Part shown: one piece after another, positions 6,295-47,700 of the stretch | How the letters are laid out: each line of letters opens with the position of its first letter | How positions within the stretch are numbered: position 1 is the stretch's first letter | From: Octopus vulgaris | Lineage: Eukaryota | Direction: 5' to 3' | DNA length: 64,000 nucleotides | NCBI GenBank assembly: GCA_951406725.2 | Contig: OX597829.1 | Coordinates: forward strand, 26,164,001-26,228,000 | Made by a program: the position numbers and the translations under genes | The notes under the pieces: model-generated | Seen by the model: the letters and a program-made list of their open reading frames with translations, nothing else | What the model was told of the DNA's origin: nothing | Databases searched by the model: none

Positions 6295-6359
6295 TCGGGT
6301 CTTTCCAATATCGTAACTAACTTGCAAAGGAGTCGAAACAGGCGGCCGTTTTCAACTTC
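6295..6359 (-). CDS. PAN3: PAN3 exon (EVENGRLFRLLCKLVTILERPE)
   Basis: ttccag / gtaaga; 65 nt, phase 0 to 2. Confidence 0.97.
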
Positions 6360-7729
6360 CTGGAAAGAAAATGACAAGGAATTGATGTTAGACATGACTG
6401 CAGATAGGTTTATATAAAAACACACAAACTCATATTTTTGTGTTACTATTGATGATGTCACAAAAAAAAAAAAAAAGACACACACACACACGATACATGC
6501 TGCAAAAGGGTTGGTGTAAGGAAGAGCATGCAACCGTAGAAACCTTGCCAAATGAGACATTGGAGCACTATGTAGTCCTTAGATTCTGTCAGAACCTGTG
6601 AAACCACCCAACCTATGTCAGCATGAATGATGGGTGTTAAAGGATGACGATATCATCGTTGAACATCAACATTAGCATCATTTAATGTCTGTTTTCCATG
6701 CTGGTATGGGTTGGACGGTGTGGCAGGATCCAATGGATCCAAGGACAGCATCATGCTCCAGTGTCTGCTTTGACAGAAGTTCTACAATTGAATGCTCTTC
6801 CTAATGCCAACTACTCTACAGAATGTACAGGGTGCATTTTTTTTGTACCACCAGCACTGGTGAGGTTGCTAAGTACCCTACACGGTAGAAAAAGAAAAAA
6901 ACAGAGAAAAAGACTTCACAACTCAGTGAGGGAGGGGGGCTTTATGCCAGTTATTCAGGGGCTAAAGTATGATAGAGGGACAAGAATAAGTATCTTGTTA
7001 AAGAGAAGATACGTGGCTACTCCACATATATGAGTGAGTGGGAATAGCTGGGAAGATAAAGATGGTAATGATGGGAGTTGGGGCAAAACAAATCCTCAAG
7101 GTACAAGGTGAGCATATGAGAAGACACAGACAGTGGATTGGGGGGGAGAGTGAGAAGTTATGTATGAGTGTGAGAGGAGAACAACAGATGACTGGAAATG
7201 AGGGTAGAGGTAAATATGGCAAGTGATGAACAGAGGTGGCGTGGTTGATGAGAAATACCTATATGGAGTAGATGTAAGGTGAGAGAAATAGAAGCAGAGG
7301 ATGATGTACAAGGTGTAGGAGTAGTAGGGAGTGAAATGTAAAGTACATAAGTGAAGAGCTTTAGTGAAAGGGGTGTCATGACAGATATGAGAGCAAGTTG
7401 AAAATGGAAGCAGATATAAGCAGTGTTAATATGAAGACTAGGCAAAGAGAGGGTGAGACATAGGGAATCATAGAAAGGAGGTAGTCAGTGAAAATATTGT
7501 AGGAAGAAATGATGATGAAAATGACAAATGAAAGGAACATAGCATCTGTTGATTCTGCTCTCACATGATCACAGTAGCTGAGCAGATCAACAGACAGAGA
7601 AATTATTGACATTAGGGAAGGTGGGATTAGATGAATTAGGGAGAATGCTTGACAGGGCAGAATGGGTGTAGGAGTAGAGATCTAGACATACAAGTATAAA
7701 CTAAAGACATTGTTATGACTGCCCGACTT

Positions 7730-7852
7730 CTATTTTTTAAAGTCATGTAGACATTCTCCAAGTTTTCCAACTATGCTGAAGTCACACAGCTTGTGACATA
7801 TCAGTCCATGACTGACTTTATCAAAGGCCTTTGCAAAGTCAAGATATATCAC
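7730..7852 (-). mobile_element. CR1/Jockey-group LINE RT fragment
   Basis: Translates VIYLDFAKAFDKVSHGLICHKL. Confidence 0.7.
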
Positions 7853-7858
7853 ACACAC

Positions 7859-7900
<42 letters not shown>

Positions 7901-7904
<4 letters not shown>

Positions 7905-9036
7905 AATAATACAGTGATTGTTTCTTATCTTGAACAAAATGTTTAATAGGACTGCTATAGAAGTGCTCAATTGAATGAGACAAATATATTAAACTATGGT
8001 TGCAGAACAAACAAATACAAGGTCATCCACGTAACATTTCATATCTAGAACATTTAATCATAGAATATACATGTATAACATCTCGGAAGATGAAACATAA
8101 CTCATCAGTACAAGCATATAAGAAAATGCAAGAAAAATGTGTGAATACAGTTCATCACGGTTAAAAGTTAATACTTTAGCGATTAAGAAATATATATTTT
8201 TTAAAAACATTACAACATCTAGAATAATAAATACGTAAAAATATAAAGTAATATATAAATATATATATATATATAGGAAGCATATAAATAAGTAATATAT
8301 AATATATAAGGTAAGATAAAAGTTCATCGTTTAGAAATTTTTTTCATTAAAAATTACTTTTCAGATAAGGGAAACCTATAGTTAAAAGCCAGTGTCCAAG
8401 CAAAAAAGAAGAAACCATATTTACATTCCCTATGGCCATTTCAGGGGTACATCACTGTATTTAATGCACGAGGGTGCATCACAATAACTACTCCTTCGTC
8501 AGGGGAAAAAATAGAGAGACAGACATCACGTACCAGGGCGAGACCTCCTTAACCAGTATTGCGTGGTTTCTTATTTAAGAAGTCATGCTTAGACCAGCCC
8601 AAATGAAAGAATTAAAGCAGTAAAAAAAAAAGTTTTAAAAAGTTTTTTAAAAAAAGTTAAAAGTTACCTTATATATTATATATTACTTATTTATATGCTT
8701 CCTATACATATGTATTTTTATATATTTTTTATATATCTATATATTTATATATTACTTTATATTTTTACGTATTTATTATTCTAGATGTTGTAATGGTTTT
8801 AAAAAAATATATATTTCTTAATCGCTAAAGTATTAACTTTTAACCGTGATGAACTGTATTCACACATTTTTCTTGCATTTTCTTATATGCTTGTACTGAT
8901 GAGTTATGTTTCATCTTCCGTGATGCTATACATGTATATTCTATGTGAAAGAAAAAGCATTATGTGATTAAATGTTCGAGATATGGAATGTTACATGGAT
9001 GACCTTGTATTTGTTTGTTCTGCAACCATAGTTCAT
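7901..9036 (-). mobile_element. Penelope-type non-autonomous fold-back element in a (TA)n array
   Basis: Arms ~7991-8314 and ~8664-9033 are inverted copies; hammerhead in the spacer; ~90 nt unpaired tail 7901-7990; (TA)n on both sides. Confidence 0.65.
8426..8507 (-). ncRNA. Type I hammerhead ribozyme motif, intact core
   Basis: Minus strand reads ttccc CTGACGA [long stem II: aggagta/tacccct, gttattgt/acagtgat, gatgcac/gtgcatt] GAAA tggcca TA gggaa. Stem I is 5 bp; stem III is palindromic. Confidence 0.8.
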
Positions 9037-9066
9037 TATATATATATATATATATATATGAAATAT

Positions 9067-9345
9067 ACTAGCTGAATATCCCATTGTTACCAGGCAATTT
9101 TCACAATAGAATGACTTTCTTTCATTTTTTTTTTTCATTCCATGTCAGACCATGCCTTCTCTGATGGAAAGGCCTCTTGATCAGAACTGATATCCGCACC
9201 ATTTGGGGCAATTTATAAATTTTTGTTTTTCCATGTAGTGCATAGATGTAAAGATTTTTCTTAGTTCACTGTTGCTCTAATGATCTTTACACACTTGCAT
9301 ACACACGCACAGACATGCACCCAGTGTGAGTGATATACATATAGA
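9067..9345 (-). mobile_element. Possible non-autonomous Helitron-like element
   Basis: Minus strand starts TCTATATG and ends with a degenerate hairpin plus CTAG|T. Confidence 0.35.
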
Positions 9346-9895
9346 GAAAGAGCAAGAGAGTATGAAAGTTTCCAATGAGAAAAGTCACTGACAAAAAGAG
9401 AGATCTTTCCTGTTGTTACAGATTTTGAAATTTTAAAATTAAGTGAAAATTTTCAAATTTGGTTCGCCATCTTTCGGGTCCCCGGCCGCCTGCTACACCT
9501 GAGTCGGAGCGGGAACGCCAGACGCGAGCGTCGCGGCGAACGCACGGACCCGACCCGGGAACGATGCTTCGAAGCGCCGTCCTGCCTCTGGACGTCCGCT
9601 TCTTCACGCCCGCCTATCAGACGCTCTATCATAAAATGAAAGTAAAAACGTTACAAATAAGAAGTTCTAAACAAAATGGGAACAATTACACGTCATATCA
9701 AAAGAGAGGATGAGCATCATGTGTGAGAGATATAGATATACATAGAGAGAGTGAAATATATATGTACAGAGGGGAAAGCATAAGATAGAGAGAACTTGGA
9801 GACAGATAGAGAGAGGGAGATTTCTCGCTCTAAAAGTTGAGATATTTTTCATGTAAAATATCTCAACTTTTAGATCGAAGTTTAAGCAAGCTTAC

Positions 9896-10025
9896 CTTTG
9901 CCAACTCATTCTCAACAACATCACTGCGTAGTTGCGCAGCATCAAGCTGTGTGTAAAACCTTGCACCAATCATTGGCATTATATCGTTAACACTGCGCTG
10001 TCGTCGTTGCGATCCCATTAGGTAT
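9896..10025 (-). CDS. PAN3: PAN3 exon, coiled coil (SVNDIMPMIGARFYTQLDAAQLRSDVVENELAK)
   Basis: ttgcag / gtaagc; 130 nt, phase 2 to 0. Confidence 0.97.
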
Positions 10026-10292: not shown

Positions 10293-11632
10293 CATCATCA
10301 TCGTTTAACGTCCGCTTTCCGCGCTAGCACGGGTTGGACGGTTTGACCGGGTCTGGGAAGCCAGGGGCCGCTCCAGGCTCCAGTCTGAATCTGGCAGAGT
10401 TTCTACGGCTGGATGCCCTTCCTAACGCCAACCACTCCATGAGTGGATTGGGTGCTTTTTACATGCCACCTGCACAGGGGCCGGAGGGTCCGGCATCGTC
10501 ACGATCGGTTCGAGCATTTTAACGTGTCAGCGGCACGGGGGCAACGAGGTCCGGGGTACTTTGGGGATCGGGGTATTTTGGGGATCCAGGGTACTTTGGG
10601 GATCCGGGGTACTTTGGGGATCCGGGGTACTTAGAATGGGTAGGGGGTATGTGGAATTGCTGCAGAAAGCAGCCCGGGTCTTTGTAGTCACAGCATATCT
10701 CCAGAGATCTCGGTCCTTCGCCATTGCCTCAGTGAGGCCCAATGCTCTGAGGTCATGCTTGACCACCTCATCCCATGTCTTCCTGGGTCTACCTCTCCCC
10801 CTGATACCTTCAACTGTTTGGGAGTGGCACTTCTTCACACATCTCTCTTCATCCATCCGCAGCACATGACCATACCATCGCAAGCGTCGCTCTTGCACAC
10901 CACATCTGATGCTTCTTATATCCAGCATTTCTCTCAGGATACTTACACTCTGTTTTGCGTGCACACTGACACTACACATCCAGCGGATCATGCTAGCTTC
11001 ATTTCTTTCAAGTCTACGCATGTCTTCTGCAGTCACAGCCCATGTTTCATTACCGTGAAGCATGGCAGTTCGCACACATGCATCATACAATCTACCTTTT
11101 GCTCTGAGGGAGAGGCCTTTTGTTGCCAATAGGGGTAGGAGCTTTCTGAACTTTGCCCAGGCTATTCGTATTCTAGTGGTGATACTCTCTGTGCATCCAC
11201 CTCTGCTACTAACTTGGTCTCCCAGGTAGCGGAAACTATCAACTACTTCTAGTTTCTCTCCCTGGAGTGTGATGGAATCTGTTTTCTGAGTGTCTGTTGT
11301 GTCTATTGTCCCTGTGCATCTGCCGCACATGAAAGCTATCTTATCTGTTAATTTCCCTTTAATGTTGCTGCACCTCTTATGTGTCCATAACTTACATTGG
11401 GTGCATCTTATGGAGTTTCTACCTGTACCTTTCCTACAGGTTGAGCAGGGCCACCTACCCGAGGGGATGTGTGTTGAGTACCTCTTGCTGCTTACTAATA
11501 CTTTGGTCTTTGCTACATTTATTCTAAGGCCCTTTGATTCCAACCCTTGCTTCCATACCCGAAATTTCTCTTCTAGTTCCGGTAGTGATTCTGCTATGAG
11601 AGCTAGGTCATCGGCATAGAGGAGCTCCCAGG

Positions 11633-11637
<5 letters not shown>
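10293..11637 (-). mobile_element. 5'-truncated RTE LINE
   Basis: LLYADD, PHD finger, FRYLG, RLRWYGHV, RGRPRKTW; (GAT)n tail; TSD ggcatatat at 10284-10292 and 11633-11641. Confidence 0.93.
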
Positions 11638-11669
<32 letters not shown>

Positions 11670-44715: not shown

Positions 44716-47700
44716 TCACTATTTTATTGAAGCCAAAAAAATTCACAAATTATTACTCAGAGTTCTAAATAACAATTCATCAGATACTTATGATAATTAA
44801 GATAAAATAATTTAGAAATTATGAGTATATATAAGTCTTCAACAAATAATTATTTAAATCTGACTGGGCAACTTATTCTTGAAATAGTGGTTTACAGTTG
44901 GATGAAAGGAGAATTGAGCCTAACAGAAAAATAATATAAATAATTGATAAGTTGAAAATATTTTTTAAAAAATAAATTTTAGATGTAGGTGAAAAACAAA
45001 ATATACAGAATAAGATAGACTATGTCAAGAATAAGAAGATGCAAGAAATTAAATAGGACATAATTAAAGAAAGCCTAAAATCAAAATTAAAATAAGAGCC
45101 ATTAGATATCACTAAAACATAAATAAATGAAAATACCAAAAATTAAAAGCAAAGGAAGTTGAAAAACAAAATTGCTATGAGAGAGAGGGGGGGGGAGAAA
45201 GGAATGTGATGTTAAAGAGATAAGGAGAGGTGAAGTAAAAAGCAAAATGCAGAGAAAGCGTTATATGTACACAGCATATTTATCAAATATGTCTTATAGC
45301 AAAGAGGTGCAAGAAGGGGAAGGTTGACAGTTTAACAATGTGATAGAGAGATTACTAGAAATAAATTAGAAATACTATTAGAGACACTGAATTAGAAAAG
45401 AATGAATAACCAAAGCTTGAACACAGATACAGTAATGGATTATAAGCAAAAATGCCATATACTAATGAAAATGTGTAAAACAGCAGAAAAAAAAGGTGTG
45501 TGCATGTGTGCGTATTTATTATTATTATTATTATTTTATTAATATTATTATTAAATTATATTATAAATTAAAATAATCACACAAACATGAAAGATGTCCT
45601 GAAAACAAAAACAAAAAAAGTGATAAAATGATAAAATACTCTGGCTTTTTCATTGTCAAATATAGTGGTTATATTTATATATAAAAATATAGACTCATAT
45701 ATATATAAATATATATGTGTGTGTGTGCATGTATATATATATATATATACACACACACACATATATAGTTCAAATTTACAAAAAACAAAAGACAAAGACA
45801 GTTGAAGGAACAAGCTGATGTATTAGTTAAATGCTTGGGAAGAATGGAAAAGTCTTTCAAGTCTACTCTTCGACAGAAAGCTTGAGTGGAGAGAACAGAA
45901 AAAGAGAAAAAAAAAATGTGTAGGGATTACACACACACACCCATATGCGTATATGCTGTGACAAGAATTTATATAACAGGCTCCTCTCTAATACTATTAC
46001 AGACATATAAGAAGGCAGTAATTACTTTACACAAAGCGATGAATCTTGAAGCAAAGAGAATTGTAATTATCAGGAGCAGGATGGAGTACCCCCTTCCACA
46101 TAAGCCTTAAAGATCACAAAACCAATTTTAGGAGAATCCCCAAATGTAGATTTATCAACCTGACAAAAACTGAAATACAAATAATTAGCAAGAATATTCT
46201 AGATTCTATTCTCCATAAGATTAGTAGAGATATAAATGGAAAATCAACATGTCTGTTATAGATTGGCTTAACAACAAAACAATAAATACAACCATAAGTT
46301 TAATCTGTTTGATATCATGGACTTTAAGCTGTCAATAACTAGGATTCTACTGCTTAAGGTACTTGATTTTGTTGAGGAATGAATAGCTGTCAGCAACTTG
46401 GATACTGACCTCATCCAGCATGTCTTGAAATCCTGACAATTTTTCAACAACTCTGAGTAAAGAAGAATGGGGATGCTTTGTCATACTTTCTATGGGTATG
46501 TATAATAGAGCAAGAATTATGTCTAAATAAGAATTTCCTTATTTAGAAACAGGTTTGTATAAGGCCTTACCTCTAACATGAACAAGGTCTTAGAAAGAAT
46601 CTTATTCTATTCTTCCAGCAGACAGGCTTAAAAATTATAGTTAACATGAATCTTAACAGTGTTAACTATTTAGTTACCAAATTAGATTTCTAATTTAACA
46701 GTTTTAAGCCAGATTGTAAGCCTAATGAAAGACCATCCCCTTTGTCCCTAATGGAAACAACATCAGAAGGTCTCCAAGAACTAAGACTAGAAAGGTTTTG
46801 TGGCATAATCCAATATTTAGCAACAGCATTAGAAATAACGTAGTTAGAGAATTTTAAAATTTACCATCTAGACATTTTCCAAGTGACTGTGAATTTTCAA
46901 CAGAACTCAAAATTAATTATTCTTGTTGCATAAATTTTGCCTCTCTTGTTAACCAGCACATTCATTATCAACATTCTAAATAAAGCTAGTGAAATTGTTG
47001 ATAGACTTAAATGTTATTTCAAATATCCCGTAGGCAGCCCTTCAAATGGTAAACTGCCCAATTAAAAGATGTATATAGGACTAATGTGCAAACTGACAAT
47101 ATCCCCACAAACAAAACCTCTACCAGGGTCACACAAAAAATAGCTTCAAAACAAGATAACTCAACAGAAATTTCCTCAAACATCCTGAAAACAGGTTGAT
47201 AACAAGTCTAGTAAAAGACTGCTTGGCAAATAAAAGAAGCTGGTTCAGTTCCCTTGAAGATACATTATTCTATTTTGGAGAAAGCTAACCCTTACAAACA
47301 GGGAGTGTACTGAAATTTTATGAAATGCTTGTTGTACTTGAGTGAAAATACTTCATATTGTTCAAAGACAAATTTGCATTGAACCACAAAACAGAGCATC
47401 AAAACTCTTAATGTATTGCAAAACGATTCCATATGGCAAGCCCATTACAAATTCACTAAAAATTATCAATTTTTTAAAATAACTCAATTTTTGCTGGAAC
47501 ATTATATTGTGTTCCCCTAATTTATTCAGACTGTCAAATTTTGCTATACCCGATTTCTTTTTTTACCACACTTATATATAACATTTTGTATGTTTTTCAT
47601 ACCCACCACCCACATTACACATTGCAAACTTTTTCAATTATTACTTTTAGACAGGCACAGGTGTAGCTGTGGTAAGAAGTTTACTTCCCAACCTCAGAGT

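Follow-up and report, generated by a model that had tools for sequence, protein, structure and literature searches.

A 5'-truncated Hydra-clade PLE insertion with a predicted dimer-type hammerhead in an intron of PAN3

The segment 7902-9041 of the window (the whole 64-kb stretch of DNA analysed) is very probably a single 5'-truncated insertion of a Hydra-clade Penelope-like retroelement (PLE), whose own 3' hammerhead likely works only as a dimer and is predicted to be almost silent in PAN3. The segment belongs to a repeated family, consists of two arms with a tail on one side only and ends on both sides in (TA)n; the palindrome of its hammerhead is kept with covariation among the relatives and the decay of the copies looks neutral. 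The preliminary description of this DNA had recognised the kind of hammerhead correctly but had overlooked that the motif and the arms around it form one retroelement insertion. Since both belong to one Hydra-clade PLE insertion, neither needs a PAN3-specific function. The parts of the insertion are as follows.

7861-7901, unstranded: (TA)n microsatellite of the target, tailed end
7902-7983, minus strand: 82-nt tail, on the direct-copy arm only
7984-8663, minus strand: direct copy, truncated on its 5' side, of the 3' UTR / pseudo-LTR of the Hydra-clade PLE; the 5' edge falls in a T-rich tract and is placed approximately
8664-9041, plus strand: inverted and more strongly truncated copy (equivalent to 8314-7984), without hammerhead and without tail
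9042-9059, unstranded: (TA)n microsatellite of the target, short end

Alignment of the two arms (8664-9041 against 7984-8314) gives 323 matches, 8 mismatches and 47 gap columns, corresponding to 97.6% identity over ~330 bp. The arms flank the hammerhead at 8507-8426, in agreement with its earlier placement in the loop of a ~320-bp inverted repeat. The direct copy is truncated at ~8663 and its tail ends in (TA)n at 7901; the inverted copy lies back to back with it and enters (TA)n at 9042. Read in this way, the inverted repeat is the known footprint of PLEs, namely a 5'-truncated copy plus a shorter inverted copy, each with a (TA)n end. The hammerhead owes its position in the loop solely to the inverted copy having been truncated before it reached the motif. 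In the near-complete siblings L055, L058 and L059 the sequence of the tail continues into the ORF's 5' UTR and ATG, so that the tail is the start of the next tandem unit. Neither a second hammerhead nor an ORF of this family is present elsewhere in the 64-kb window. A diverged PLE-type RT fragment lies at 46085-46469 on the plus strand (tblastn with the 806-aa ORF described below, E 1.4e-6). The start of the tail (7970-7979, minus strand) contains TTGAGCACT, which by eye is also found near the 3' end of coral Hydra-2_Amil in the supplementary sequences of PMC8557442 and is possibly a conserved Hydra cis-signal.

The loop sequence retrieved 327 genomic candidates, and scoring of the best 40 resulted in 44 matches which, apart from the self match, are 84-99% identical. 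A 22-mer spanning the GAAA, the palindrome and stem I has 73 exact genomic copies as compared to 0 for the control. By these counts, the siblings of the insertion number dozens to hundreds in the genome. Homology among the siblings extends through the 3' arm to either 7984 or 7902. Upstream of the hammerhead, the longer siblings contain the end of an ORF with a CxCX5C linker and a GIY-YIG domain, and the endonuclease motifs CNCRNPELC (linker), YIG and CKLC-IRE..LNK..CIH could be identified. The match of a sibling to Pfam GIY-YIG PF01541 (E 6.7e-4) reaches 20.3 bits, which is below the cut-off of 22.6. Searching with the upstream part gave 79 candidates, the best 40 of which were scored and included RT-bearing copies with the motifs RLRWR, SDKTG and YRDD (RWR rather than RWK). 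An 806-aa open frame is present in one of these copies (L045/L052); taken as a whole it had no Pfam hit, and a PDB sequence search with it returned weak matches only (E 0.34-0.58), one of which is chain 1mk0 of the intron endonuclease I-TevI. In L052 (2487-4904) this frame lacks only about the first 60 residues. L052-L056 constitute a young subfamily with arms 98-99% identical, which may have been active recently.

The diagnostic set given for the Hydra clade in PMC8557442 consists of RW[K/R], DKT, CxCX5C and GIY-YIG, and the hammerheads listed there include Hydra-1_oBim from Octopus bimaculoides. Our family has an RT with RWK-type and DKT motifs, the CxCX5C linker along with a C-terminal GIY-YIG that lacks CCHH, with CxxC and CxH around E and N. 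(TA)n is found at both ends of the window insertion and at most sibling ends, and the 3' hammerhead, direct partial tandem and inverted 5' copies and the tail are present as well. The parent element, estimated at ~3.5 kb from the coordinates of L055, exceeds the Hydra tendency to stay <3 kb, which is not a strict criterion. On the basis of these motifs, the window insertion and its siblings are assigned to the Hydra clade of PLEs. A non-exhaustive literature search for an octopus-specific or twin-priming account gave Craig 2021 and unrelated papers.

Two further groups were seen among these loci. L043-L048 form a subfamily with an in-frame asparagine-rich insert between the RT and the linker, resembling those described as N-rich in the Penelope elements of Adineta vaga (PMC3846280). 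A second, more abundant young hammerhead family (1,863 candidates, of which the best 40 scored are 94-98% identical) has stem III CAATTG/CGATCG and back-to-back arms like those of the PAN3 insertion. It directly adjoins ORF copies of the PAN3 insertion's family at L052:986-2391, L055:1-1826 and L078:992-2276. In L052 it replaces the 5' end of the ORF, which is suggestive of template jumping or of shared (TA)n targets.

The hammerhead itself is made up of the following elements.

8426-8507, minus strand (PAN3 sense): type I hammerhead belonging to the 3' pseudo-LTR of the PLE, from sequence, folding and covariation
8503-8507, minus strand: stem I 5' strand UUCCC, pairing with GGGAA 8430-8426 (5 bp)
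8496-8502, minus strand: core CUGACGA (C3-A9), from sequence
8443-8495, minus strand: long stem II, A-U closed, with one A.C mismatch near the core, from folding
8432-8442, minus strand: GAAA 8442-8439 (G12 = 8442), which shares 8439 with the 8-nt palindrome AUGGCCAU at 8439-8432; the palindrome is predicted to form stem III between two RNAs
8430-8431, minus strand: predicted cleavage site after AUA (A17 = 8431), i.e. 8431/8430, by hammerhead numbering

The complete core (CUGANGA, GAAA, UH), the perfect 5-bp stem I and the palindromic stem III that had been claimed at 8507-8426 are all present at the positions listed above. Stem II had been regarded as long and well paired. It is indeed 53 nt long, and in the minimal motif six of its first seven pairs reach probabilities of 0.78-0.98, but its closing pair at 8495/8443 is A-U instead of the usual G10.1-C11.1 and its 4th pair is an A.C mismatch. 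Scanning of both strands identified no other hammerhead motif of this kind in the window, and a strict hammerhead descriptor gave 0 matches in 200 block-shuffled windows. A scan with hammerhead models, proposed earlier as a check, was negative: the 98 matches that Rfam listed at E<=1 for the whole window included no hammerhead family and were miRNA-like matches on microsatellites only. A second candidate, CUGAUGA in the arm (8896, plus strand), had no convincing stems, failed a stricter scan and was rejected.

An anchored scan of the sibling loci, with the core, 3 pairs of stem I and 3 of 5 pairs of stem II as filters and only a length of 6 nt prescribed for stem III, yielded 48 distinct hammerhead motifs. 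Their stem III 6-mers are TGGCCA (28), CAATTG (8), CGATCG (2), CACGTG (1), CATATG (1), the wobble form CGATTG (2), point variants of TGGCCA (5) and one non-palindrome. Ten hammerheads, one per family or subfamily, were picked by hand from the 48; families A-C are tied to ORFs directly and D-G are related motifs from the same loci. In this set 93% of 116 cells are paired, stems I and II having been partly filtered for pairing beforehand, and the covariation score is 0.94 as compared to 0.06-0.21 for slid controls. The core, itself a search filter, is invariant in 10/10 relatives, and the stem II closure at 10.1-11.1 is G-C in 5/10, the window copy having A-U. The palindromy of stem III was unfiltered and all of its cells (30/30) are paired. 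Covariation among the family copies, a point raised in the preliminary description, was found in all three stems, with two-sided changes in 11 of the 12 pairs. Judged by these alignments, the hammerhead is a real and selected part of the parent element.

That stem III stays palindromic while its sequence changes supports the view that the hammerhead functions as a dimer within the parent element. A proper hairpin cannot be closed by a palindrome of 6 nt. Between two RNAs, the palindrome duplex extends over 8 bp and is predicted at -11.3 kcal/mol. Metazoan PLE hammerheads have been reported as inactive as monomers and weak as dimers (PMC4209133), and cleavage by the anole PLE hammerhead is reported to be assisted by the PLE protein (PMC11167929). 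The earlier assignment to the kind whose palindromic stem III requires a dimer is thus borne out by the palindrome kept across families and by the published PLE analogues (PMC4209133). In three copies (L112:1380-1640, L142 and L148) the truncation falls inside the stem III palindrome (8436-8439), one of them being a perfect fold-back hairpin centred there; since L112 came from a targeted search, the clustering of truncations is weak (2 of ~8 otherwise).

The arrangement of the arms was followed through 88 loci, i.e. the 30 best loop matches including the window, 53 further loci from 83 hits and 5 ORF-bearing loci. Both arms with mapped 3' ends are available for 32 of them, one mapped end for 47 (24 short and 23 tailed) and none for 9. 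In all 32 two-armed loci the arms point outwards and exactly one arm carries the tail, the other end being short. If the ends were independent and 50:50, the chance of such a result would be 0.5^32 = ~2e-10; as L002/L012 and L019/L024 share junctions and the L142 pair is a neighbouring element, about 30 of the two-armed loci are independent. L019 and L024 (~1499-1501) have the inversion junction in common and carry the tail on opposite arms. An inverted 5' copy is also carried by the ORF-bearing siblings L053-L055 and L063-L065. Inverted copies with a one-sided tail have already been described qualitatively (PMC8557442, PMC3846280), and two RT start sites are reported to bound the tail of the anole element (PMC11167929). 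Copies that have the 20 nt just 3' of the predicted cut site were also collected (n=83); 71 of these continue exactly through CCAUA and 0/83 begin at 8430/8431, in line with the report that uncleaved RNA is the main template in the anole (PMC11167929).

It is likely that the GIY-YIG nuclease of the element nicked a (TA)n tract in the PAN3 intron and that the RT then copied the RNA's 3' end twice, from start sites corresponding to 7984 (short end) and 7902 (tailed end). Both cDNA copies would have stopped early, leaving the arms back to back. In full elements, two hammerheads would pair via the palindrome and so complete stem III in the tandem parent RNA. It is possible, though unlikely, that the palindromic hammerhead is mainly a signal for RNA pairing, by which a dimeric RT-nuclease copies two RNAs from both nicked (TA)n strands, one from the tail end and the other from the inner start site. 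Such a role would explain the presence of exactly one tail in 32/32 loci, the retention of the palindrome despite sequence change and the lack of copies starting at the cut site. Against it stands the anole assay, for which no strand difference in RT start sites is reported (PMC11167929), and self-priming on the antisense template has been proposed as another route (PMC3846280).

The single, early-stopped insertion described above lies in a PAN3 intron with the following boundaries.

6295-6359, minus strand: PAN3 exon downstream of the intron, from Pfam match and splice joint
6360-9895, minus strand: PAN3 intron carrying the insertion, 3,536 nt, GT..AG, from splice joint
9896-10025, minus strand: PAN3 exon upstream of the intron, from Pfam match and splice joint

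Both flanking exons and a third one at ~1292-1504 match consecutive parts of Pfam Pan3_PK PF18101, the match of the 43-aa exon being under the curated cut-off (E 0.0076). Contigs from 3 of 4 sequencing runs join 6359 to 9896 and omit the 3,536-nt intron; the RNA nature of these runs is presumed, and their animals may lack the insertion. The earlier placement of the motif in this intron is therefore upheld by the Pan3_PK matches together with the joint. A spliced product of this sort would be compatible with the loss of some fraction of the transcripts. Contigs of two presumed RNA runs fold back at 8439, which was considered as a sign of cleavage or processing and rejected, since one genomic copy has the identical fold-back and no RNA event is needed for it. 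Family-like contigs are present in all four DNA-type runs (organisms A-D) and break at the (TA)n flanks of the insertion site. Elsewhere in this part of PAN3, a palindrome with 27-bp arms (93%) occupies 9825-9878, its end being 18 nt away from the intron's 5' splice site. Other repeats (6487-6834, 10293-10433 and 10530-11669) consist of short inverted retroposon ends and an RT-related fragment, the latter with an 18-bp minisatellite at 10550-10632.

Folding of the PAN3 copy on its own is unfavorable. The lone hammerhead fold lies 7.3-10.4 kcal/mol above the ensemble when the stem III U-A pair is forced and 3.0-6.1 kcal/mol above it otherwise, energies which ignore tertiary contacts, Mg2+ and co-transcriptional order. 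No stable monomer stem III was obtained, as expected from the dimer-requiring kind. The probability of stem I falls from ~0.6 in the bare motif to 0.002-0.13 with the flanks, and according to the prediction a local hairpin with the downstream AUAUGGUUUC conceals the palindrome. PAN3 RNA would have no partner hammerhead within the window, alternative folds would dominate and the intron would be spliced normally. From these predictions, the lone PAN3 hammerhead is likely to be nearly inactive and a harmless passenger. The earlier suggestion that a lone intronic copy may be tolerated is probably right, in accord with the unfavorable monomer fold and the palindromic, dimer-type stem III.

The sequence record of the siblings points in the same direction. 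Across 29 siblings, 11 of 348 bases at the 12 core positions (3.2%) differ from the majority, as do 16 of 464 in stems I and III and 246 of 5394 elsewhere, or 128 of 4902 (2.6%) after dropping 19 subfamily-variant columns. The window copy differs from the sibling majority at 1 of 217 positions. The core decays about as its flanks do, which together with this single difference suggests that the copies decay neutrally and that the PAN3 copy is young; its core would be intact because of this youth and not because of selection.

An improbable alternative is that the PAN3 copy is cut in trans with sibling PLE RNAs or the PLE protein, so that PAN3 mRNA is lowered or its splicing altered, with the arms holding the halves together. 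The core and palindrome are intact and identical to those of most siblings, so that heterodimers are possible in principle, and the assistance by PLE protein reported for the anole element (PMC11167929) would also favor it. The arms are predicted to pair strongly in the pre-mRNA (-540.6 kcal/mol for 7984-9041) and could tether cleaved halves as suggested earlier, but they are a by-product of the insertion of the element. However, two dilute RNAs would have to meet before splicing, the palindrome and stem I are predicted to be largely unavailable in the flanking context, and even dimers are reported to be weak in vitro (PMC4209133).

Domestication as an intronic ribozyme regulating PAN3, like the mammalian CPEB3 intronic ribozyme, is highly improbable. 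The motif has an intact core and lies in sense within an intron of PAN3, a conserved gene of mRNA decay, which would fit this proposal. However, the motif is part of a young transposon with 73 exact copies of its 22-mer, 21 of 29 siblings also have an intact core, the core shows no excess conservation (3.2% vs 2.6%), the sense orientation amounts to a coin toss and the monomer fold is unfavorable. A foldback or MITE DNA transposon enclosing a hammerhead by chance, to which the long 97.6% identical inverted arms and short loop might point, is hardly credible and was rejected, as the arm lengths vary between loci, the ends are asymmetric with the tail on one arm only and the loop is continuous with the retroelement ORF in siblings. 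Equally hard to credit is a non-LTR retrozyme monomer, i.e. an ORF-less tandem hammerhead repeat giving circular RNA; its hammerhead is of the same kind and a derivation of retrozymes from PLE pseudo-LTRs has been reported (bioRxiv 10.64898/2026.07.22.740005), but the PAN3 locus has no tandem array and the siblings carry the PLE ORF directly upstream.

For PAN3, the relevance of this Hydra-clade insertion is small, as it is one among many passive insertions. Hydra-clade hammerheads, including an octopus family, have already been published and the family presented here is a further one. Its contribution is a Hydra-clade PLE that carries an 806-aa open frame, together with hammerheads of unusually long stem II that covary across related families in one genome. 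The count of one-sided tails constrains models of how PLEs, relatives of telomerase, build inverted insertions, and a pairing role of the palindrome, if true, would provide a testable mechanism for the unexplained inverted-repeat footprint. The ~330 bp of predicted dsRNA in the PAN3 pre-mRNA (7984-8314 with 8664-9041) is a possible substrate for A-to-I editing, and similar PLE insertions would place such dsRNA in host introns.

The closest known relatives are the elements of the Hydra clade, which belongs to the C-terminal EN+ PLEs, including Hydra-1_Obim as described by Craig et al. 2021 (PMC8557442), with which our family shares RW[K/R], DKT, CxCX5C, CxxC/CxH around E/N, the C-terminal GIY-YIG, (TA)n insertion, a 3' type I hammerhead, an inverted 5'-truncated copy and a tail at one end. 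It is set apart by eye from Hydra-1_Obim by a different N-terminus and hammerhead, although stem II of the Hydra-1_oBim hammerhead is also A-U closed. As compared to Hydra in that description (PMC8557442), our family has a ~53-nt stem II in place of a short hairpin, a stem III made of an even 6-nt palindrome plus A-U, a tail of 82 nt as against 30-40 and an element length of ~3.5 kb. The metazoan PLE hammerheads of Cervera and de la Pena 2014 (PMC4209133) are likewise of type I with a short stem I, large stem II and short palindromic stem III, and occur mostly as single truncated copies with some opposite-strand pairs. Our family, known here from sequence, differs from what is described there in that A10.1-U11.1 takes the place of G10.1-C11.1 and stem II is not preceded by a bulged nucleotide.

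Adineta vaga Penelope (Arkhipova et al. 2013, PMC3846280) and anole PAc (Frangieh et al. 2024, PMC11167929) share with it the inverted pseudo-LTR, a tail on one arm that continues into the 5' end of the next unit, two RT start sites bounding the tail and Asn-rich inserts in some ORFs. Both belong to other clades, and in our family the tail consists of 5' UTR and not of coding sequence, both ends lie in (TA)n and the presence of exactly one tail has been counted in 32/32 loci. The CPEB3 intronic ribozyme and the amniote intronic hammerheads have in common with the PAN3 motif a sense-strand self-cleaving motif in an intron, cleavage of the PAN3 motif being predicted. They are single-copy and conserved at orthologous sites. 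The PAN3 motif, unlike them, is the stub of a young multi-copy transposon.
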